Positions 268 to 15,916 of a DNA stretch of 16,952 nt are shown in pieces. A model generated the notes under the pieces. The model was not told the origin of the DNA. It was given only the letters and a program-made list of their open reading frames with translations, and did not search any database. Source of the stretch: Synechococcus sp. (GTDB lineage: Bacteria > Cyanobacteriota > Cyanobacteriia > Thermostichales > PCC-7336); NCBI GenBank assembly GCA_051439425.1, contig JBFRWD010000024.1, forward strand, positions 1 to 16,952, read 5' to 3'. Made by a program: the position numbers and the translations under genes. Each line of letters opens with the position of its first letter. The first letter of the stretch is position 1.

Positions 268-625
268 GGGCTTAGTTCCTGTCGGGTTCGATTTACTTAG
301 CCTAACTCGCGAAACCGAGGAAGTTTATACGCTTAATAACAGCTACAGATACGTGAACAACACGAAAAAAAAGTAACGTACTGACATATTTTTCGGTCAG
401 TTCTGGGTGATGTTTGCTTGAACATTGGGTGGTGCGAAAAAGAGCAGTCGTTAAAGTCCTAAGCAACCCAATCGGACTTTAGAAATTCTCCCAGTCTATT
501 CAACAGCGCTTTGTGTAGAGGGAGGGAGTGTCGTCAAGGCCAAGCCTGCGGATTGTGCGGGGGGTACGATGCCCTCAATTCACCAAAGCTGGCACACTAT
601 TAGAGTCGATCGCGAGTAAGTAGAC

Positions 626-2098
626 GTGGCCCTGACCATATTCAATTCACTGACCCGACAGAAGGAGCCGTTTGTTCCCCTTAGCGAATGCGAATCCTCT
701 ACCGGAGCTGGACAGGGTTCTCGTGACGTCAAGATGTATGTCTGCGGAGTCACTGTCTACGACTTCTGCCACTTGGGCCACGCTCGCACCTATGTTACGT
801 GGGATGTGGTGAGGCGGTACCTAGCCTGGAAAGGGTATACCGTCACATACGTTCAAAACTTTACGGATGTAGACGACAAAATCTTGAAGCGGGCACGGGA
901 ACGGGGCTCGAACATGCAGGCGATTTCGGAAGAATTTATCGATGCCTATATGGAGGATATGGAACGGCTAAATGTGATGCCTGCCGATCTCTATCCCAGA
1001 GCAACGCGATCGCTGTCAGCTATCTATCAACTGATTCAAGATTTAGAACTAAAGCAATTTGCCTATCAGGTCCGCGGACATGCAGAAGGGCAGGATGTCT
1101 ACTACGCTGTGCGCAAGTTTAACGGGTATGGCAAGCTTTCCGGTCGCAAACTGGAGGACATGCAAGCAGGGGCCAGCGGACGAGTGGATACCGAAGCTAT
1201 CCAAAAGCGCGATCCGTTTGACTTTGCATTATGGAAGTCTGCCGAACGCTCTGAGGAGGGGTTCGAGTCGCCGTGGGGATGGGGGCGACCGGGATGGCAT
1301 ATTGAATGTTCGGCAATGGTGCGGGAGACGTTGGGCGAACGGATCGATATTCATGCTGGTGGAGCCGACCTGAAATTTCCCCACCACGAGAATGAAATAG
1401 CACAGTCGGAACCGCTGGGAGGAGAACCGTTTGCCAAATATTGGATGCACAACGGGTTTCTGAATATCGACGGCGAGAAGATGTCGAAGTCACTCGGTAA
1501 CTTCAAAACCATTCGAGATGTGTTGGAAACTTACGAGCCGATGGCCCTACGCCTGTTCTTCCTACAGACTCAATATCGCAGTCCGATTGACCTAACGGAC
1601 GAGAGCCTGACGGCAGCAACCAGCGCTTGGAATACGCTGTCCACAGCATTAACCTTTGCTCAAACTCTCGACCTGGAGGGAGTCAAGCCGGAATCTGAGG
1701 CGATCGCGGCGGCAGAGACGGCCCTCGATGATGATTTCAACTCCCCCGGCGCTCTAGCTGTAGCTTTCGATCTGGCGAAAACCTTGACGAAGGAAAATAA
1801 TCAGCTCAAACACACTGGAGCAGGGACCCTCGATGCGGCTACGCTGACCGCAAAAGCGCAGGCTTTGGTCGCGATCGCCAACATTCTAGGTTTAACGGTG
1901 GAAGGGGTCAGCGACAACGAACCATCGGCGCCCGATTCCTTCACAGATGCCCAGATTCAAGAGCTGCTCGATCGCCGCAATGCCGCCCGTAAAGAGCGCA
2001 ATTTTGCCGAAGCGGATGAGATTCGCGATCGCCTTAATGCGGAAGGAATCACGATTGTTGATCAAAAGGATGGCAGCAGCCGCTGGATTCGCGCTTAG
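626..2098 (+). CDS. cysS: Cysteine--tRNA ligase
   Basis: MYVCGVTVYDFCHLGHAR (HIGH-type motif), DFALWK, GRPGWHIECSAM, DIHAGGADLKFPHHENE, KMSKS and a C-terminal anticodon-binding region. GTG start. Confidence 0.98.
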   Translation: MALTIFNSLTRQKEPFVPLSECESSTGAGQGSRDVKMYVCGVTVYDFCHLGHARTYVTWDVVRRYLAWKGYTVTYVQNFTDVDDKILKRARERGSNMQAISEEFIDAYMEDMERLNVMPADLYPRATRSLSAIYQLIQDLELKQFAYQVRGHAEGQDVYYAVRKFNGYGKLSGRKLEDMQAGASGRVDTEAIQKRDPFDFALWKSAERSEEGFESPWGWGRPGWHIECSAMVRETLGERIDIHAGGADLKFPHHENEIAQSEPLGGEPFAKYWMHNGFLNIDGEKMSKSLGNFKTIRDVLETYEPMALRLFFLQTQYRSPIDLTDESLTAATSAWNTLSTALTFAQTLDLEGVKPESEAIAAAETALDDDFNSPGALAVAFDLAKTLTKENNQLKHTGAGTLDAATLTAKAQALVAIANILGLTVEGVSDNEPSAPDSFTDAQIQELLDRRNAARKERNFAEADEIRDRLNAEGITIVDQKDGSSRWIRA

Positions 2099-2144
2099 CT
2101 AGAGATAAGCCAAGTTGGGGAAGCTACGGGTAAAGAGAACCGAA

Positions 2145-2158
2145 GGCCCAATCGGGCC
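2145..2158. terminator. Short GC hairpin between the convergent cysS and GNAT genes
   Basis: GGCCC-AATC-GGGCC. There is no strong U-tract, so this is a weak call. Confidence 0.3.
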
Positions 2159-2175
2159 GTATTGTCAGTAGGAAC

Positions 2176-2763
2176 TTATTCAGAGAGCGACTTATACAGC
2201 AAAATCTCTCGGGGGGCACCGAGATAATTCCAAGCCGTCGCCGAACGCCCTTGCATGCTGAATCCAGCGTTTAGATACAGTCGCTGCGCGGCTTTGTTGC
2301 TCTCCAGAACGTGCAGGAATATGCGAGCGCTCCCCCATGTGGCCGCGACTCCTTCGGCCCCCAACAGCAGCTTGGTCGCAACCCCCTTGCGTCGCCAGTC
2401 AGGCAGCACCGCCAGGTTGGCGATGTATGGTGCGCGAGTGGTGTCTGCTGTGCTCGGTTGAGTGGCACTAGTGGTGCGGCGCATACCGATTTCTAGTGTC
2501 CCCGCCAGCTCGTCATTGCACCAGGCTCCCAAGCAGCAGTATTTGGGATTGTTGCCGAGCAGTCGTCGCCGAATGTCCTCGCGAATTCCTAGACGCAACA
2601 CCGGCCACACGAACCTCTGCAACCCGACACGGGGGTGAAACGATAGAGCCAGCACATCTGCGAGCGTATCGAGATCGTCGATAGATGCCGGATAGACCAA
2701 AACCTCCGGCTGCGAATTCGAGCGGGGGAACGTGCGATCGCGGTTGCCGGGATGAACGGTCAT
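2176..2763 (-). CDS. GNAT family N-acetyltransferase
   Basis: PYIANLAVLPDWRRKGVATKLL (acetyl-CoA motif A) and LHVLESNKAAQRLYLNAGF (motif B). ATG at 2763 is preferred over the upstream alternative start at 2793. Confidence 0.9.
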   Translation of the reverse strand: MTVHPGNRDRTFPRSNSQPEVLVYPASIDDLDTLADVLALSFHPRVGLQRFVWPVLRLGIREDIRRRLLGNNPKYCCLGAWCNDELAGTLEIGMRRTTSATQPSTADTTRAPYIANLAVLPDWRRKGVATKLLLGAEGVAATWGSARIFLHVLESNKAAQRLYLNAGFSMQGRSATAWNYLGAPREILLYKSLSE

Positions 2764-3182
2764 TGAGGCCTGCAGGCAAATGGGAACGAGCAAGAATGCC
2801 GCATGAATAATTTCACTGTAGCTCTGACAGGATACTTGTGTGGCTGATAGCTGTCCTCACTCTAGCGATGATTGTTCGAACTCCTTGAACTATCGGGTAG
2901 GAGAGTTAACTGCCTGAAGAGACGCAGAATATGTTCGGAAGCGCGATCGATGTCTCACATACCTGACGTTCTCATTCAAAACACATTAAAGTGGGAAAGC
3001 TATCGCCGGCTCTAAATTCACGATGCTTTAGTCAGTCTGCCTGCAGCTTTGCTTGCTTTTAGGTTTGCTTGCTTTCAGATTTACTATCTATTTATCGCGT
3101 TCTTGCCCTGCCGAGCGTTGGTGTCATCAAAATCTCATCAAAACCTACAGATTGCTTGCGAGCGATCGCTGCTCTTCCTTCC

Positions 3183-4310
3183 ATGACCCATTCCACAACC
3201 CTTTCTACGGCTTCTGTCGGCCCGCTCGCCACCCCCGGCTCCAAAGTTGTCGTGGGAATGTCGGGCGGCGTCGATAGCTCGACTGCTGCTGCGGTTTTAC
3301 ATCAGCAGGGATACCAAGTGGAAGGGGTGACCCTGTGGTTGATGAAAGGTAAGGGACAGTGTTGTTCGGAAGGCATGGTCGATGCCGTGCAAGTGTGCGA
3401 CCAGTTGGGTATTCCCCATCACGTCGTCGATTCGCGCGAGCTATTTGAAGCTAGCATCATCCGTTATCTTGTAGATGGCTATGCAGAGGGCACCACACCG
3501 CTCCCCTGCTCCCGCTGCAACACCACGGTCAAGTTTGGCCCGATGATCGATTACGCCCGCGAGCAACTGGGCATCGAGACCATTGCCACAGGCCATTATG
3601 CTCGCATTCAATATTCGCCCGATCGCGATCGCATGCAATTATTGCGCGCTCGTGATCGCAACAAGGATCAGTCTTATTTCCTTTATGACTTGAGTCAGCA
3701 CCACTTATCTCATGCCATGTTCCCGCTGGGAGACTGGGAAAAGTCTGAGACTCGCACGGTAGCAGCCGATTTGAACCTGCACACTGCCGATAAACCCGAG
3801 AGTCAAGACTTGTGCCTGGTGGAAGCACATGGCTCGATGCAAACCTTTCTCGATCGGTACATCCCTCCGGCGCAGGGAGAGATCGTCGATACAGCTGGCA
3901 ATGTTCTGGGGAACCACGAGGGAGTCCACCATTACACCATCGGTCAACGCAAGGGGCTGGGGGTGGCTGCGGCCCAGCCGCTGTACGTGATTGCATTAGA
4001 TGCCGCCATGAACCGAGTGGTGGTCGGGCCCCGGGAAGACGCAACTCAACCGGAGGCGATCGCCGAGCGCGTCAATTGGGTGTCAATGGCCCAACCCAGC
4101 GCAGCAATTCGGGCAGATGTCCAAATTCGCTATCGATCTCGTCCCGTTCCAGCCACTATTACACCTCTGCCAGACAAAAACGGACAGCTCACCCGCACTC
4201 GAATTGTGTTTGACGAACCTCAATTTGGCGTCACCCCCGGACAAGCAGCCGTGTGGTACGACGGAGATGTCTTGCTGGGAGGTGGTTTGTTGGAGCGATT
4301 TACTGACTGA
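3183..4310 (+). CDS. mnmA: tRNA U34 2-thiouridylase MnmA
   Basis: [14 protein letters not shown]-loop, [39 protein letters not shown] and [12 protein letters not shown] at 3183 is the likely start (the ORF is open from 3069). Confidence 0.97.
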
Positions 4311-4362
4311 CGTTAGTAGTCTGTCCGGCTTCCAGAAGTAAGGGCAATCTTGCCGCTCGATC

Positions 4363-4467
4363 TATGGCTTTCTGCAATCAGCTATGGAGAATACTCTAGC
4401 CATGTTTCTCGGTAAATCGAAGATTTGAGCTGTCCTCACACTCCAGACCTTACAGCGGATTGCCATG
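4363..4467 (-). repeat. Dispersed ~105-bp inverted-end repeat, copy 1 (inverted relative to copies 2-4)
   Basis: The reverse complement of the core (4374-4463) reads GCAATCCGCTGTAAGGTCTGGAGTGTGAGGACAGCTCAAA...TTCTCCATAGCTGATTGC and aligns with the copies at 5851, 11865 and 15747. Confidence 0.9.
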
Positions 4468-9286: not shown

Positions 9287-10147
9287 ATGCCCGTCAGGTA
9301 TTCCTTCTGGACTAATCGCCCTCGTAACGTTAGGCACCGGGACTACCAGAACTATCTGGGTCTGCGGTTTGGCACCTTTATGTTGGGCGGTTTGGGTTTT
9401 TGCATATTTCTGATGACTGTTTTTGGTGTCACCCTGCAAACCTCATCAGAATTAGCAGCATTGTCGGGCCTCTCCATCTCAGAGGCCTTGGCTTGGGAGG
9501 GAGGTAGTAACGATCCGGTTAAAATCGAGGGATTTTTGTTGGCAGAGAGCCCTTACGCCATGCCAGATGATGAGTCTCTCAGAGTTATTCGGGGGGAATT
9601 GCTGATTGCCGCGCGGAGCGGCAGTTCTGAGGAACGCGTTCGAGAGGAGCTGTTTCGTTGGGATCGTGCTGCCGATATCGTGACCCTGTCGGATGGCAAT
9701 ATCACCATTCCCCTTGCGTTTAACCTCGACGTTCTTCCCACTGTTGACGACCGCTCTGCCCGAGCCCGAGTTCTGTGGGTCGGGGAAACTAGACGCTCTC
9801 GTCCCTTGGAGGTGGAATACGAAGAGCAAATATTTCCCCTTACCCCAGCTATTTGGGAAGGTGTGGAATCCGTATTTGTCGATGTCACCCGACGATACCT
9901 AGTACAGGGGGAATTGGTGACGGTTGTAGCAGGTATCGACACCTCAAGCGGTTCGGCCCAATTGGTCGATCCACTGGGAGATCGTCTGCGGGTGCACTGG
10001 GGTAATGAGGCAGACATCCTCCGCACCAATCAGCAAGCTAGACGCACGATGGGAATGGTTGCCATCCTCATGCTTGTAGGCAGCTATCTTCTGTACCGAA
10101 AAGCCGATGAGATGTATCGTCAGTTTGAAATTCTGTCCAATCAATAG
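9287..10147 (+). CDS. Hypothetical membrane protein with two TM segments (possibly GIDE/BAM-like)
   Basis: Long ORF starting 5 bp after the slt stop. Hydrophobic segments near residues 25-50 and 256-270 flank a ~200-aa soluble domain. Confidence 0.75.
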   Translation: MPVRYSFWTNRPRNVRHRDYQNYLGLRFGTFMLGGLGFCIFLMTVFGVTLQTSSELAALSGLSISEALAWEGGSNDPVKIEGFLLAESPYAMPDDESLRVIRGELLIAARSGSSEERVREELFRWDRAADIVTLSDGNITIPLAFNLDVLPTVDDRSARARVLWVGETRRSRPLEVEYEEQIFPLTPAIWEGVESVFVDVTRRYLVQGELVTVVAGIDTSSGSAQLVDPLGDRLRVHWGNEADILRTNQQARRTMGMVAILMLVGSYLLYRKADEMYRQFEILSNQ

Positions 10148-10429
10148 GACAGGCTCTTGTACAGCCCCCAGCGATGGCATCGTCAAATGAACTGAGACTC
10201 AACGAAAATCAGCACTGTTGTTCTTGGACGACCTACTTAGGTGATGAATGACGCTACTGTATTTCGACAATTCGAATCATGCCAGTTCTCGATTAGCTCA
10301 TTTTTCCCCATATTCTGTTGCCGAGAGTGTGTATTGATGGGGAGGAAAGTGACCTTATATCGGCTCCATTGCGGCTAAACATCGCTGTGTTTGATTTTTT
10401 TGGGAGGGGGTAAGCGTCTATTCGTATGC

Positions 10430-10924
10430 TTATGTCGTTTTATCAATAACTTTATAGTCCAGATCTTTGTTTGTCATTCCAGTACCTATGCGGCTATTCA
10501 TCACATCTTTGATTAGAAATATAACCTTCAATGCTAGAGTTCGTTTTCCTGTCGTCAACCCATCAACGGCTGCCTTCATAATCTCCAACAAGTTATCGAT
10601 CTCCTCCTCGGTTTCCTGCGATAGTAACTTATCTGAATTTGTGAATATTAGTAAGTAGGTATTGCAATTTTCCAAACACCATAATTTTTCAGCTAAAGAA
10701 TCATTCAACGCATCCCAATTTCGACCGAAATAGGAGGGGAAGTCTAACTGTACATATGCTTCTTCCATCAATTCGGCTTTTGTTGACGAGCGAGAACCAT
10801 CCAGCAATGCCTTGGCTGGCTCTAGACCCTTAAGGTCTGAAATCAATTCCGATGCAGATTCCAGGCTCTCGTCCACCAAAAAGAAATCAGCTTCCTCAGC
10901 ACCGATCTGTTGTGTGATTCCCAT
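10430..10924 (-). CDS. Barstar family ribonuclease inhibitor (immunity protein)
   Basis: LLDGSRSSTKAELMEEAYVQLDFPSYFGRNWDALNDSL is the barstar signature (FP.YFG.NWDAL.D.L); the protein is acidic. ATG 10924 has AAGGAG upstream (alternative GTG start at 10945). Confidence 0.9.
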   Translation of the reverse strand: MGITQQIGAEEADFFLVDESLESASELISDLKGLEPAKALLDGSRSSTKAELMEEAYVQLDFPSYFGRNWDALNDSLAEKLWCLENCNTYLLIFTNSDKLLSQETEEEIDNLLEIMKAAVDGLTTGKRTLALKVIFLIKDVMNSRIGTGMTNKDLDYKVIDKTT

Positions 10925-11025
10925 CTTCTCGTCCACTCCTTTCACTGTTTCTGATGCTCGGTGATGACTGGAATTTACCTAAGAATTTGAAGCATAGAAC
11001 TAGCGGAGATCACCATGCCTGTTGC

Positions 11026-11676
11026 TCAGGTTAACTCCTCAAACGATCCCTCTGCGTAATGCGCCCCCGTGTACCATATCCGTCCATTATCTCCAACAAC
11101 TATTCGTTCTGCGTCTCTGCCTCCCGATTCTGGCTTTGGATTGACGTCATATTCTGTAAATGAAGTCGGAATGTTTTCGTCACCCGCCTTCGTTAATTGT
11201 GCTTTGAGTTCTATTCCTTTATGAGGCTGATAATGTCGCATTCCAACCTCGTAGCCTGAGCTGAGGTCAGAGCCTGTGGTCAATTTCTGGGCTGCCACTT
11301 TATCCGCCGGTTTAACCATCTGGATCGGAAGCTGCAGAAACGCTTGGACTGGTTGAGCGACGTCGTAGGTTTGGCGCTCGAGCTGTTCTTGCTGATAGTC
11401 AGATTTGTACCGATCTCTAGGTTCATCGATCGCAATTTTCATCTGCAATGGCTGAAGCTCAACCGCATTTCCCGGATTGATTTTCATGGTCTTCAGGCTG
11501 TGGCCCGTGCGCCTCACAGTCTCTGACTTCGCCATCGTCTCTTCATGCAACTGCTTGGCTTCCTCAAGCGCTTCTGGTTGAGGTGCGGGGGCAAACGGCC
11601 TTGAGGCTATGGTGCTCTGTGGTGTTGCAGACGATTGAGAAGAAATAGTCTTCTTCTGAGGCTGATAAGTACTCAT
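11026..11676 (-). CDS. Polymorphic-toxin-like protein: low-complexity leader plus C-terminal barnase/RNase Sa-family ribonuclease
   Basis: C-terminal TEYDVNPKPESGGRDAERIVVGDNGRIWYTGAHY keeps the E, R, R and H catalytic set of microbial guanyl RNases. A barstar gene lies directly downstream. ATG at 11676 (ORF open from 11682). Confidence 0.85.
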   Translation of the reverse strand: MSTYQPQKKTISSQSSATPQSTIASRPFAPAPQPEALEEAKQLHEETMAKSETVRRTGHSLKTMKINPGNAVELQPLQMKIAIDEPRDRYKSDYQQEQLERQTYDVAQPVQAFLQLPIQMVKPADKVAAQKLTTGSDLSSGYEVGMRHYQPHKGIELKAQLTKAGDENIPTSFTEYDVNPKPESGGRDAERIVVGDNGRIWYTGAHYAEGSFEELT

Positions 11677-11860
11677 GGCCAAGCTAGGAGCAGGAGAACC
11701 TAGATATTGCGAACAAGACAGCGGCGAACCACCGTCTCCTTGCGAATCAGCGAGAACGCGATCGAATAGGATTGGATCGCATCTGAATTAATGTTGAAAT
11801 CCTCCGCCTTTCCTTCTCTACCTGTAAGTAGACAAAAGTCTATTCCAAGACTTACGCAGG

Positions 11861-11966
11861 TATAGCAATCCGCTGTCAGGTTTGGAGAACAAAAACAGCT
11901 CAAAACCTTGGTTGGCCAGGAATAATGACCTGAAGAACTCTTCAGAGCTGATTGCCAAAGGCTATA
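11861..11966 (+). repeat. Dispersed ~105-bp inverted-end repeat, copy 3
   Basis: TATAGCAATCCGCTGTCAGGTTTGGAG...ACAGCTCAAA...GAACTCTTCAGAGCTGATTGC-CAAAG-GCTATA. Confidence 0.9.
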
Positions 11967-12037
11967 GCAATGCTTATGAGTTAGCTTGACGCTATCCAAG
12001 CGATGGGTCTGACTCGCCATCAAAAATTTGGAGTTCT

Positions 12038-12994
12038 CTATCTGGCTGTAACCGCAACGCTCAAATCCCGGAACATCGGAGTGCTCAAATAGCGCTCGCC
12101 AAAACTAGGTTGCACCATCACGATTAACTTGCCAGCGTTTTCAGGTTTGCGGCCTACTTGAATCGCCGCTGCCAAGATTGCCCCGGTAGAAATCCCCGAT
12201 AGCAGGCCCTCTTCCCGTGCCAATCGCCGTCCATATTCAATACTGGTGTCATCATCGATGGCAACGACTTCGTTGATGATCGAGCGATCGAGCACGTCAG
12301 GCACGAACCCTGCTCCAATTCCTTGGATTTTGTGGGACGATGGCCGTCCTCCACTCAGAACTGCGCTGGAACTGGGCTCTACAGCAACAATCTCGATGTC
12401 TGGCTTACGCTCTTTTAAGTACTGACCGACCCCCGTAATGGTGCCTCCGGTGCCAACTCCCGCCACAAAGATATCGACAGTTCCATCCGTGTCTTGCCAA
12501 ATTTCGGGGCCGGTGGTGCGGTAATGAATAGCCGGATTTGCTGGATTCGTAAATTGCCCCAGCATCACGGCATTGGGAGTCTTGCGGACAATTTCTTCTG
12601 CTTTCCAGATGGCTTCTCCCATGCCTCCACCTCCGCGCACCAGCTCGACCTCGGCCCCATAAGCCTGCAGCAAAAGCTGACGTTCTACACTCATGCTCTC
12701 CGGCATGGTGATGATGAGTCGGTATCCTTTTGCTGCTGCTGCCATTGCCAGTCCCACCCCTGTATTGCCTGAAGTGGGCTCAACCAATACCGTCTCGCCT
12801 GGGACCAACGTACCGGCTTGCTCGGCCGATTCAATCATGTTGACAGCAATGCGATCTTTGACTGATGCTGCGGGGTTGAAACTTTCGAGTTTGACAGCTA
12901 ACCGAGCCAAACACCCTTCAGACTGCGGAATGGTGTTGAGTTGCACGAGAGGGGTTCGTCCGATCAGTTGCGTAATGTTGTCGGCAATGTTCAT
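12038..12994 (-). CDS. cysK: Cysteine synthase A (O-acetylserine sulfhydrylase)
   Basis: [16 protein letters not shown] (PLP lysine), [25 protein letters not shown] and [10 protein letters not shown]. Confidence 0.97.
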
Positions 12995-13041
12995 GGATGG
13001 CAGAGCGGGGTAGTGACGCGGTGGAGGGAAGAAAAATCGGT

Positions 13042-13560
13042 TTAGGAGATGGACTGAGCTGGGGTGGTTTCAACTGGGCTGGGGGCAAGGCGATCGACGA
13101 ATAGGATGCCGTTTAGGTGGTCGATTTCGTGCAGCAAAATTCGGGCTGTGAAATCAGTGGCGAGATATTCCTTGCGCTGTCCGGCAGCATTATAGGCTGC
13201 GACTCGAACCCACTCCGGGCGGTAGACTTCTCCTCGCCGCTCGGGCACGCTCAGGCATCCTTCCATAAAGCTGCAGGAAGATTGAGAGCGGTCCAAAATT
13301 TCTGGATTAATAAGTATCTGAAGTGGAATGTCTGGGATATCTGGGTAGCGGGGATTGGATTGGCATTCGATCACGATCGCCTGAATCGAACGAAAGACCT
13401 GCGGAGCGGCAATGCCCACGCCATCACGTTCTCTCAATGTATCGATTAAGTCTGTCAGAAAAGCCTGGAATGCTGGGGTTGGAATCTCCTCAACCAAAAC
13501 TGGTTGCGCCACTTGGCGCAGGATTGGTTCACCGATTTCTGCGATTGGGAGACAGGTCAT
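13042..13560 (-). CDS. def: Peptide deformylase
   Basis: All three motifs are present: [13 protein letters not shown] and HEIDHLNG. Confidence 0.96.
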
Positions 13561-13727
13561 GCTCGCAGGTTATGATTTGCCTCTCAATCCTAACTCCGAA
13601 CTTCCATTGAGGTGGGTGATGGTTTGGTAGGGCTAACGACCAATTCTGGAAGGCAGGAGAGTTTCAGCGGCGATCGCTCGGTCAATGTTCATTTGAAAGG
13701 TTTTGCTTGCCTGGGGCAAGTGATGTT

Positions 13728-15350
13728 TCAAACCGATCGGCGGCTTGCCGCTGTTTCGGCAATTTCAATGCAATTTCGTCCATTGGCCTTGGCTTGGTAC
13801 AGTGCGCGATCGGCCATTTCGATCAAGACAGAAGGCGCATCATCTTGGCTAGGGATGATGGTGCCAATTCCTTGGCTCACCGTAAGTGTGGAGTTGAGAG
13901 GGGAGCCATCGTGGCGAATATTGGCGAGAGCAATCGCCTGCCGAATCGCTTGAGCAATTTTGAGGCTATCAACATCGTGACTGGTGGTCGAGCGGCCAGA
14001 ACTTAGCAAAATGGCAAATTCTTCTCCCCCGTACCTGGCTACGATACCAACGCTTTTGGGAACGGCCCGCTCAATGGTTTGGGCGACCAACCGTAGACAA
14101 TCATCCCCTGCTTGGTGACCGTAGGTGTCGTTGTATCGCTTGAAAAAATCAATATCAAGCAAAATGAGGGTCAGGGGGGTTTGAGCAAGATGAGCCCGCC
14201 GCCATGCCCGATCCAAATCGCTATCAAAATGATAGCGATTGGCTAGATTCGTCAAGCCGTCAGATGTTGCCAGTAATTGCAGGCGGGCGTTGGCGTTACG
14301 CAATTCGGATGTTCGTTCTTCGACCTTGATTTCTAGTGTCTGAGAGTAGTTGGCTAATTGCTGATTTTGGGCTTCGAGAGTCGAGGAATAGCACTGAAGC
14401 TCCCGCACCATCAAGTTGAATGTGTCGGCCAGGACCTCTATTTCATCCCCCGTCTTCAGACTAAGGGTGTTACTAAAATCGCGATTTCGCACTTGCTCTG
14501 CTGCGTCGGTCAGGGTTTTAAGCGGGGTGCTTAACCAGCGGGCAATAACGGCTGCTATGAGAATAGACAGGCATAGGCTAATGCCAATAATGGCAAAACA
14601 AATATTGCGCAGCCGAGCTAAGTTGTTGAGCTCGCTGGTGACTAGCATGTCCAGTCCCAATACGGCGATGGTCCCTCCCGAGGCATCCTTAATCGGAACT
14701 GCTGCCGTAATAGATGTGTAGAAGGCATCGGAGTAAAAGGACTCCGATACCTGACTGTTTCCTGCGAAGGCGTTGGCGAAGATAGGGGACGTGGGCCTGT
14801 ACAGATTGCCGATGGGATTGCCAGGCCACTCCTCTCCTTCAGGTTCGGGGGCAAACGATGAAAGGAATTTGATGACGCCCAAATCGGGGGACTGTGGGGT
14901 TCGAATGGCAATGTACGGCAGTACGGCGTTGGGGTAATTGAGAAATTCCTGCGGGTAGAACTCTTGTAGAGGATCGACGCGATCGCGACTGGCTCGATTA
15001 ATGACTCTCAGCGCTTGGCTGAGACGCTGAAATTCTGGAGTTTGATGGTAGCGTTCGATATCCCTCTCTGACAGGCTATTGAGAAATGCTCCGGATTCCA
15101 GCTCTGCGATATCGCTGGCTGTGATATGAGAATCGCTATCGATTTCCGCACTTAATTCGACAATATCGTTCCGCATTTGTTCATCAATTAGAAATGCCCC
15201 AATTTGGGCCATATCTTTTAGCCGATAATTGATTTGTGTCAGTAAAAGATGACGTGTGTTGCGGTAAACGTACACCACACTGACACTGGTTAAACCAACA
15301 GTCAGACTGGAAATTGCAAGAGCTAACTTAAGACTAAATGAAAAGCGCAC
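13728..15350 (-). CDS. Membrane-bound sensor diguanylate cyclase (TM-periplasmic sensor-TM-HAMP-coiled coil-GGEEF)
   Basis: Two TM segments, HAMP (PLKTLTDAAEQV...DEIEVLADTFNLM), DGLTNLANR, DIDFFKRYNDTYGHQAGDDCL, ARYGGEEF and ADRALYQAKANGRN. GTG start. Confidence 0.93.
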   Translation of the reverse strand: MRFSFSLKLALAISSLTVGLTSVSVVYVYRNTRHLLLTQINYRLKDMAQIGAFLIDEQMRNDIVELSAEIDSDSHITASDIAELESGAFLNSLSERDIERYHQTPEFQRLSQALRVINRASRDRVDPLQEFYPQEFLNYPNAVLPYIAIRTPQSPDLGVIKFLSSFAPEPEGEEWPGNPIGNLYRPTSPIFANAFAGNSQVSESFYSDAFYTSITAAVPIKDASGGTIAVLGLDMLVTSELNNLARLRNICFAIIGISLCLSILIAAVIARWLSTPLKTLTDAAEQVRNRDFSNTLSLKTGDEIEVLADTFNLMVRELQCYSSTLEAQNQQLANYSQTLEIKVEERTSELRNANARLQLLATSDGLTNLANRYHFDSDLDRAWRRAHLAQTPLTLILLDIDFFKRYNDTYGHQAGDDCLRLVAQTIERAVPKSVGIVARYGGEEFAILLSSGRSTTSHDVDSLKIAQAIRQAIALANIRHDGSPLNSTLTVSQGIGTIIPSQDDAPSVLIEMADRALYQAKANGRNCIEIAETAASRRSV

Positions 15351-15742
15351 GGGATAAATATCGGCAATTTCACGCTAGTGGCTAAGGCAACTGTAACCCG
15401 ATATTCGAACAACAACCAACACGGTTATGGGTAAAGAAAAGCATTCTAATTCAGTGTTATTTCGGATGTACCTGCTTGAAAATCGACTTGTCTGCCGGCT
15501 TCTTTTTCAAGTGTCATATGTGCCACTCAAATCGTTATAGGGTTGGTGGGTTTGACTATAGTTGTTTTGAGACTTGCTTATTTCGGGGCATTTTTTTTTG
15601 AGGGATGTATAAAATCTGTGTCCCAGATGATTGGAGGGACCTGCTTGGATTCGTGATGGTTTTGAGTGTGAGGGATTGCCGTCCAGTGCTGAGGCTGTTG
15701 CGCTTGTAGAGTCAGAGCAACCATCGATCGCAGTTGTGCTTG

Positions 15743-15847
15743 TATAGCAATCCGCTGTAAGGTCTAGAGCCGGGAGACAGCTCAAAGTCTTAATCTACAA
15801 GGCGAAATAATTGGAGAACTCTCCATAGCGGATTGCCTGGCGCTATA
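15743..15847 (+). repeat. Dispersed ~105-bp inverted-end repeat, copy 4
   Basis: TATAGCAATCCGCTGTAAGGTCTAGAG...ACAGCTCAAA...TGGAGAACTCTCCATAGCGGATTGC-CTGGC-GCTATA. Confidence 0.9.
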
Positions 15848-15916
15848 GCTCTAGCGTTCGTCACTCGATCGCCCCTTGGCGCAAGACCGGTTCGGCAGGC
15901 TAGAACGGGCTCACTA

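Follow-up and report, generated by a model that had tools for sequence, protein, structure and literature searches.

A barnase-type toxin and its barstar as a probable trans-encoded effector-immunity module of a contractile injection system in Synechococcus

We describe a ribonuclease (RNase) toxin gene and the barstar-family immunity gene that follows it, located at positions 10430 to 11676 on the minus strand of a 16,952-bp contig of Synechococcus sp. (JBFRWD010000024.1, assembly GCA_051439425.1; the whole contig is hereafter called the window). The pair probably serves a cyanobacterial contractile injection system (CIS), of the extracellular or the thylakoid-anchored kind, as an effector-immunity module encoded in trans. 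The toxin would combine the cargo-loading leader of this lineage, about 117 disordered residues long, with a barnase-type RNase tip, the DUF4157 core (Pfam eCIS_core) having been lost. It would fold in the cytoplasm of the producer, where the barstar would block its active site, until its leader is recognised by an Afp15-like AAA+ ATPase, which would detach the toxin from the barstar and thread it unfolded into the tube lumen; contraction would then deliver the RNase and lead to RNA degradation in the target cell. An earlier reading made from the letters of the window (hereafter the sequence-only reading) had proposed such a stand-alone effector loaded in trans. The leader homology, the CIS genes, the leader paralogues and the orphan leader genes of a closed relative all support it, the loading itself, the barstar stripping, the delivery and the identity of the target being steps that we infer.

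The leader of the toxin and its family

The toxin gene (11026 to 11676, minus strand) encodes 216 amino acids (aa) plus a stop, with the same coordinates in the open reading frame (ORF) list, the translation and the sequence-only reading, and with a Pfam Ribonuclease match. An alternative TTG start at 11682, two codons 5′ of the ATG, would give a 218-aa protein beginning with MAM, as in several paralogues. Its leader (11326 to 11676, minus strand; residues 1-117) is hydrophilic and predicted to be disordered, and carries the motifs S25-R-P-F-A-P30, G58-H-S-L61 and QPLQMK at residues 75-80 (P76-L-Q-M-K80), ending at the junction P117-I-Q-M120. In an AlphaFold2 model of the toxin, built from a nine-sequence alignment, residues 1-117 have a predicted local distance difference test (pLDDT) score below 50 and no secondary structure. 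The mean hydropathy of the leader is -0.93, its residues 6-21 carry a charge of +2, and a tyrosine (Y4) is among its first 8 aa. No hydrophobic signal, Sec- or Tat-like, was found, the highest 15-aa Kyte-Doolittle window in residues 1-60 being -0.03, and this confirms the lack of a hydrophobic signal peptide that the sequence-only reading had pointed out.

Three other proteins of the genome have a first stretch of about 100 residues that resembles residues 6-112 of the toxin. One is a 546-aa protein on contig C33 (55067-56707, minus strand) with neither DUF4157 nor any Pfam family, the second a 448-aa protein with eCIS_core on the same contig (53578-54924), and the third a 707-aa protein on contig C135 (3406-5529, minus strand) with no Pfam family behind the leader. 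R26-P-F-A29, G58-H59, L61, P76, Q78 and I83 are invariant across the four leaders, and a profile made from these found no fifth ORF in the genome, the next match having an E-value of 0.025. By eye, a C-terminal AHSRG stretch of the 546-aa protein resembles a hydrolase nucleophile elbow. The 707-aa gene, itself an orphan, is followed on the same strand (locus L030) by a gene for a 151-aa YbjN-family protein (PF10722; 2945-3400, minus strand), which could be a chaperone or an immunity partner.

The four-leader profile (A1) was searched against 1.84 billion cluster representatives at E<=1e-3 and matched 91 proteins of 109 to 1046 aa, the match starting at residue 23 or before in 85 of them and at residues 42-105 in the other six. 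The next domain after the leader is eCIS_core in 57 of the 91 (Pfam). Among the 34 proteins without it, 25 have no family and nine have another domain: Ribonuclease, calpain C2 (three proteins), an actin-fragmin-kinase-like domain, a Tse2-type ADP-ribosyltransferase, an NS_2 endonuclease and two weak matches. The leader is homologous to N-termini of DUF4157 proteins that have diverse C-termini, as the sequence-only reading had it. Twenty of the 34 are at least 250 aa long, and 19 of these 20 have no H[ED]xxH at all; loss of DUF4157 is, on this count, recurrent among leader proteins, with at least 19 long examples. The leader consensus drawn from the data (...SRPFAP...PDLQTQLExAxRFGH(H/S/N)(L/F)...PPIQPKLTIGxPGDKYEQEADRVAxQVV) agrees with the one that the sequence-only reading had given.

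In order to avoid circularity, a second profile was built from 82 leaders, leaving out the own-genome copies, P0003 (an 84% relative) and the six internal matches. With this foreign profile the toxin ranks first among the 25,751 ORFs of at least 50 aa in its own genome (E 4.7e-19, aligned to residues 1-94), followed by the three paralogues at 7.8e-18 to 1.4e-12 and then by a DUF4157 protein on contig C71 at E 0.0045. By these profile comparisons the leader is a real conserved family, its likeness lying far beyond chance. Source names were obtained for four of ten leader clusters looked up, and all four are cyanobacteria. A literature text search on the leader motif strings found no paper describing the leader, a description in other words or in papers outside the search being possible.

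That this is an ordinary pair of secreted barnase and barstar as in Bacillus or Streptomyces, with the likeness of the leader being low-complexity noise, is scarcely credible in the light of these results. Related RNase-barstar pairs with plain or hydrophobic N-termini do exist, for example at the Nitrospira loci L041-L046, but the toxin has no signal peptide, only four ORFs of the genome match the leader, and the match to the foreign profile rests on position-specific motifs and is not compositional. Both the hydropathy and the foreign-profile match contradict such a pair.

The tripeptide [ILV]Q[RKM] occurs 447 times in the toxin (P0001) and the 91 matches (92 proteins), versus 96 +/- 10 times in shuffled sequences. 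Most occurrences fall in the stretch of 100-200 residues that precedes HExxH, where repeated ...EEELQMKP... units are one example; in P0001 the tripeptide stands at residues 77-79 and 118-120. The excess largely reflects homologous conserved positions, and therefore it is not independent evidence for a cleavage site; that the tripeptide is a processing or junction site is a guess.

Contractile injection system genes and their association with the leader

The sequence-only reading had placed the injection system elsewhere in the genome, and CIS genes are indeed present on five other contigs (C33, C71, C97, C150 and C153). There are two sheath genes (C33, C71), five tube genes (C33, C71, C153), two Pvc16_N cap genes and two genes for Afp15-like AAA+WHD ATPases (C71, C150), genes for a VgrG-like hub, a PAAR protein and a CIS_tube protein (C153), and genes for gp25 and Baseplate_J (C97). 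The paralogous leaders that it had suggested looking for are the three described above, and the two on C33 lie on the same strand as, and directly downstream of, the sheath gene and three tube genes. The second CIS locus, on C71, has its own DUF4157 protein (402-2228, minus strand; 608 aa), the one that reached E 0.0045 with the foreign profile. As this protein lacks the RPFAP leader, the two CIS systems of the genome seem to use different cargo N-termini.

Two further observations concern these loci. Between the tube genes and the leader proteins of C33 (57281-59030, minus strand; 12284-14030 of locus L028) are genes for a RelA_SpoT-domain protein (347 aa) and a 182-aa protein of no family, which could be further effector or immunity genes. 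On C153 (7871-14107, plus strand; locus L032) a 2078-aa Ser/Pro/Thr/Gln-rich protein without a Pfam match is encoded between the tube gene and the CIS_tube, PAAR and VgrG-like genes, a place that suggests a tape-measure-like or linker role.

The leader profile and the cap family Pvc16_N were also searched in an even set of 250 other genomes of the phylum. The leader is found in 10 of the 250 and the cap in 29, and all 10 leader genomes are among the 29. Gene order in complete or large contigs, where leader genes are part of the CIS loci, adds to this. In G127 the order is gp25, Baseplate_J, two leader+eCIS_core proteins, ATPase, cap, sheath and tubes, in G029 it is cap, ATPase, an inserted type III CRISPR-Cas cluster and a leader+eCIS_core protein, and in G251 the leader gene is 3 kb from the cap gene. 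The insert in G029 (L034, G029:C1:1138001-1158000) comprises Csx3, Cas10 palm and RAMP proteins.

The closed genome G252, of the same genus, has four leader+eCIS_core genes, one of which adjoins ATPase, cap, sheath and tube genes. For the other three the nearest cap gene is at a distance of 181 kb, 197 kb and over 1.6 Mb, and no CIS gene was found in their 9-kb neighbourhoods, which consist of housekeeping genes or include an integrase and an IS110 transposase. To judge from these positions, encoding putative cargo in trans is the normal state in this genus. Compared by eye, those on C150 and C33 have close orthologues in the cap and sheath of the G252 leader locus, and for this reason we would assign the leader of the toxin to the C33/C150 system and not to that of C71. 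Among the orphan loci of G252 (L064-L066), L064 and L066 adjoin genes for DUF4351 proteins, and L066 also adjoins a phage-type integrase and an IS110 transposase gene; given these neighbours, the orphan effector genes may be mobile.

The leader could instead serve a route other than a CIS, such as release upon lysis or another secretion system, and would then be linked to CIS genes only indirectly. This we hold to be very improbable. It is true that 19 of the 29 cap-positive genomes sampled lack the leader, and a CIS therefore needs no leader. Yet the toxin has no Sec- or Tat-like hydrophobic segment, the leader genes of G127 and G252 are embedded among baseplate, ATPase, cap and sheath genes, and each of the 10 leader genomes has a cap gene. 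Moreover, the excerpted text of Weiss et al. 2022 (PMC8894136) reports two DUF4157 proteins detected by mass spectrometry in CIS preparations of Anabaena, a comparison that is made through DUF4157.

The RNase domain and its pairing with the barstar

The RNase domain (11029 to 11325, minus strand; residues 118-216) begins at the conserved PIQM junction and is delimited by the model, the fold match and the profile alignment. Pfam matches residues 165-209 to Ribonuclease (PF00545) with 28.9 bits (cut-off 24, E 1.8e-6), and residues 118-216 have a pLDDT of 80-95 in the AlphaFold2 model. Whole barnase and binase chains (residues 3-110) align to this folded part in VIA-align with Z 5.5-6.0 over 81-86 residues and a root-mean-square deviation of 3.2-3.6 A, a Z below 8 being modest by itself. 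Foldseek with the whole toxin model returned nothing at E<=0.001, and its top rows, whose E of 0.015 is weak, all belong to barnase, binase or RNase Sa2. A single-sequence search against the PDB sequences gave nothing at E<=1, so that a profile search was needed, and NCBIfam assigned the toxin to no family and matched the barstar with nothing above sub-threshold noise.

The profile of nine homologues aligns FTEYDVN...GGRDAERIVVG...YTGAHY with the catalytic half of binase and RNase Sa (profile E ~0.07-0.3). E175, R187, R191, H206 and Y207 stand opposite the binase and RNase Sa residues and are invariant in the nine homologues. By the roles of these residues in barnase, E175 would be the general base, R187 and R191 the phosphate-binding arginines and H206-Y207 the general acid with its tyrosine. 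Since the catalytic Glu/Arg/Arg/His-Tyr set is in register and invariant, and the folded span measures about 99 residues, the nuclease looks intact. The sequence-only reading was right as to the barnase/RNase Sa type and the catalytic residues, and its estimate of a domain of about 70 aa has to be extended to about 99 (118-216).

The barstar-family gene (10430 to 10924, minus strand; 164 aa plus a stop) starts 101 nt after the toxin stop (spacer 10925 to 11025, minus strand, from the ORF coordinates), and matches Pfam Barstar (PF01337) with 65.9 bits (cut-off 23.4, E 3.2e-18). A co-oriented barstar about 100 bp downstream, as read from the letters, is therefore borne out. In the homologues P0101 and P0102 the first residue is the same Met, which backs the ATG start. 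The protein extends beyond the Pfam domain (residues 40-128) at either end and is thereby a long form, and such forms of ~160-200 aa are frequent among 18 related RNase loci of other genomes. A conserved block, FPSYFGRNWDALND, aligns to the barnase-binding helix of barstar, LPEYYGENLDALWD, including both Asp residues; the conserved Tyr and the two Asp of this helix presumably have inhibitory roles.

Modelled as a complex, toxin residues 118-216 and the barstar reached a score of 0.84, versus 0.00 for the best control; the mark applied to this score is reached by 116 of 157 solved complexes and by 2 of 215 mismatched pairs. At least 94% of the contacts are common to the runs, with a partner pLDDT of at least 87. 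The predicted interface comprises E175, R186-189, R191 and H205-209 of the toxin and residues 63-75 of the barstar, with Y65, D71 and D75 within it, and covers the active site as in barnase-barstar. The model speaks for binding as a prediction and not as a measurement; as barnase-barstar is the textbook pair, its pass may mirror likeness to solved complexes. Independent support for the pairing comes from gene linkage, for a barstar ORF lies directly downstream of a related RNase tip in all 18 of these loci.

On the minus strand of the 101-nt spacer no terminator-like site was found, and a promoter and terminator scan of 10150-12100 gave no more sites than shuffled sequences, so that the scan carries no information on operon structure. 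The sequence-only reading had also taken the immunity gene to imply toxicity in the bacterial cytoplasm. The barstar shows only a need of the producer to protect its own cytoplasm, as with secreted barnase, and a bacterial target is not implied by it.

The pair shares with barnase-barstar and RNase Sa-barstar (PDB 1brs and 1ay7) the fold and the catalytic Glu/Arg/Arg/His-Tyr set of the RNase, and the inhibitor helix with its two Asp, the barstar here being the 164-aa long form. Barnase and RNase Sa have a Sec signal, whereas the toxin has a 117-aa leader in that place and only weak sequence similarity to them.

Origin of the toxin and behaviour of its tip

The toxin has no eCIS_core/DUF4157 match in Pfam, even at E<=1, and no HExxH in its sequence, in agreement with the missing core noted from the letters. 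By domain assignment it is outside the DUF4157/eCIS_core family (PF13699), yet its leader and its tip both appear nearest to members of that family. After P0003, the nearest RNase tips are those of the DUF4157-RNase fusions P0004, P0008, P0009 and P0010, which share with the toxin the junction A-P-[IV]-Q-M-[VA]-K-P, with Q119 and M120 invariant, and the nearest leaders are mostly found in DUF4157 proteins. In a metagenome-assembled genome record of Scytonema hyalinum (L038:5959-6669) a 237-aa protein has a leader-like N-terminus, only the second half of eCIS_core (positions 46-76 of 79) and the RNase tip, with a barstar coming after it. This protein looks like a stage midway in the loss of DUF4157. 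Because the nearest tips and leaders sit in DUF4157 proteins and the L038 protein keeps half a core, loss of the core from a leader-DUF4157-RNase ancestor would be the simplest history.

The same tip is also carried by other scaffolds. In 11 host ORFs scanned, eCIS_core was found in three (L035, L037 and L038), RHS with PT-HINT in one (L049) and Ribonuclease as the only domain in seven. Being found on eCIS_core, RHS/PT-HINT and plain N-termini, the tip behaves as a polymorphic-toxin module. The placing of one RNase tip, with an immunity gene downstream, on varied scaffolds is what it has in common with polymorphic toxin systems. Zhang, Aravind and colleagues reportedly defined, in 2012, a PVC-metallopeptidase (DUF4157) class of pre-toxin domains in such systems. 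Orphan modules of Rhs and contact-dependent inhibition (CDI) systems are usually without their delivery part, whereas the pair described here keeps a complete start codon and leader.

Genomic context of the pair

The window is the whole of contig C24 in a 182-contig assembly. Its other genes encode CysS, a GNAT protein, MnmA, DUF760 and DUF520 proteins, an SLT-TPR transglycosylase, a 286-aa protein of no family, CysK, Def, a GGDEF protein and Hsp33, and these are all housekeeping genes, in line with the earlier statement that the window holds no injection-system genes. The toxin gene is neither at the 3′ end of a CIS operon nor next to one; such closeness is a criterion for prediction and not a mechanistic requirement, and three of the four G252 leader genes lie away from CIS operons too.

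The stretch that holds the pair (10167 to 12034, 1868 bp) is represented by 159 bp in G253, a genome of the same genus, between the orthologous 286-aa gene and cysK, as determined by BLAST of window positions 9287-12994 against G253, in which query positions 1-880 and 2749-3708 match. Upstream of the toxin, at 11861 to 11967, is a dispersed repeat of ~105 bp, of which the genome has at least 35 other copies at 70-87% identity and G253 has many. Being common in intergenic DNA, it proves little at the edge of the island. It recurs in the window at 4362-4466 and 15742-15849, and on C33 a copy directly follows the 448-aa leader gene on its downstream side (C33:53462-53560). Downstream of the barstar, at 10176 to 10374, is a dispersed repeat of ~200 bp with six other matches in the genome (two on C108, and one each on C77, C152, C9 and C1). 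The context of the island is insertion-like. The G+C content is 0.50 for the toxin gene, 0.514 for the genome and 0.41 for the barstar gene, and since the toxin resembles the genome and the barstar alone is lower, composition gives no clear sign of foreign origin.

Contigs of two other studies (X2 and X8) tile both genes, mostly at ~90-96% identity, and X2 spans both flank junctions. The sole length change listed inside the pair in these contigs is an in-frame 3-nt gap at 11630, so that these related strains keep the pair intact. X1 was left out of this comparison as a possible source sample.

Weight of the evidence

Several observations weigh against a working CIS cargo encoded in trans. The leader diverges faster than the tip, since in the comparison with P0003 67 of 95 leader residues are identical (71%) as against 96 of 99 in the toxin domain (97%). 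Of the stretches that the sequence-only reading had listed, SRPFAP, GHSL and PIQM are present, but the GDKYEQEADRVA part of the leader consensus is degenerate in the toxin. The Pfam RNase match spans the second half of the model alone (positions 52-93 of 98). The AlgoCIS precedent, to which we return below, was set in another phylum and with a leader of unrelated sequence. Within family f7, the richest in the sample, the cap is found in 8 of 8 leader genomes and in 13 of the 24 without the leader, and since the sampled genomes are related, the co-occurrence overstates its independence. Finally, the contig ends hide the true distance to the nearest CIS gene, which exceeds 5 kb on one side of the pair and 10 kb on the other; as the assembly is fragmented, "orphan" means here only that no CIS gene lies within these 5 kb and 10 kb.

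The faster divergence of the leader, the degenerate GDKYEQEADRVA motif, the absent DUF4157 core and the 1.9-kb stretch that is missing from G253 and has dispersed repeats at its borders would suit a stranded remnant: an effector that lost its core by deletion, came to lie on a small island, is no longer loaded and either persists as part of a selfish cytoplasmic toxin-antitoxin-like pair or is decaying. We consider this unlikely, because the ORF is intact with its start codon and three core motifs, the toxin outscores its three paralogues in the genome against the foreign profile, and the same degeneracy is seen in the two C33 paralogues that adjoin sheath and tube genes. Both genes are also kept in the strains of the two other studies with nothing but the in-frame gap, and at least 19 other long leader proteins are without the core.

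Beyond the effector-immunity module that we favour, one could speculate that the leader together with the hydrophobic-Gln-(Met/Lys/Arg) junctions (QPLQMK, PIQM) forms a portable address and processing site, and that a DUF4157 cargo loaded alongside, for instance the 448-aa protein of C33, provides the zincin that matures core-less effectors in trans. This extension appears to us quite doubtful. If it were true, a single CIS would draw on an arsenal scattered over the chromosome, the DUF4157 core would be a shared maturation protease instead of a module of each toxin, and loading would further require the Afp15-like ATPase to remove a barstar that is bound very tightly.

Comparison with known systems and significance

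The comparisons in this section refer to the excerpted text of the sources named. The closest functional parallel is AlgoCIS, in which a disordered N-terminal domain of Cgo1 and Cgo2 is needed for loading, DUF4157 and the C-terminal domain being dispensable, and in which N-terminal domains are alike within one system and not between systems (bioRxiv 10.64898/2026.05.27.728243). The AlgoCIS cargo and the toxin have in common a disordered N-terminal region and a variable C-terminal effector domain, and AlgoCIS loading needs an Afp15-type AAA+ protein. However, DUF4157 is retained in Cgo1 and Cgo2, whose genes belong to the CIS cluster, whereas here the core is naturally absent, the gene is outside the cluster and is followed by an immunity gene, and the leader is a separate, cyanobacterial sequence family.

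Among cyanobacteria, the thylakoid-anchored CIS of Anabaena sp. PCC 7120 has the putative effectors Alr3311 and Alr3312, DUF4157 proteins that are presumed to be tube-lumen cargo (PMC8894136). These have DUF4157 and lie in the cluster, neither of which applies to the toxin, and the likeness drawn here concerns the cyanobacterial CIS. Pdp1 and Pnf of the Photorhabdus PVC are cargo without DUF4157, with a disordered hydrophilic N-terminal address and an Afp15/Pvc15-type ATPase (cited in PMC11297309 and the PROCIS preprint), and their leaders have no sequence similarity to that of the toxin; nor do the excerpts mention an immunity gene for them.

DUF4157 has been described as a core domain of extracellular CIS (eCIS) and as a toxin marker, with toxin-immunity pairs adjoining eCIS operons (Geller et al. 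2021, PMC8213781). N-terminal features of eCIS signals have been given by Danov et al. 2024, who in the excerpted text detected no specific conserved signal sequence (PMC11297309); the toxin is hydrophilic and disordered, with an early aromatic residue (Y4) and positive charge over residues 6-21, in keeping with these features. As in the toxin, eCIS-associated toxins (EATs) have a toxin tip behind a DUF4157-type N-terminal region, some with adjacent immunity genes (PMC8213781, PMC11297309). Their prediction leans on closeness to eCIS core genes, whereas here a leader conserved in sequence would mark cargo far from the locus.

What is most likely new in the pair is a CIS cargo that is naturally without DUF4157, is encoded away from the locus together with an immunity gene, and can be recognised by a conserved cyanobacterial leader. 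The toxin would be a natural counterpart of the engineered AlgoCIS cargo that still loads after deletion of DUF4157, and its 117-aa leader is therefore a minimal candidate loading tag. It also raises the question of how a toxin held by its barstar would be handed over to the loader. A leader shared across the lineage would mark cargo wherever it is encoded, and much of the arsenal can sit outside the CIS loci, as do two of the four leader genes in this genome and three of the four in its closed relative G252.

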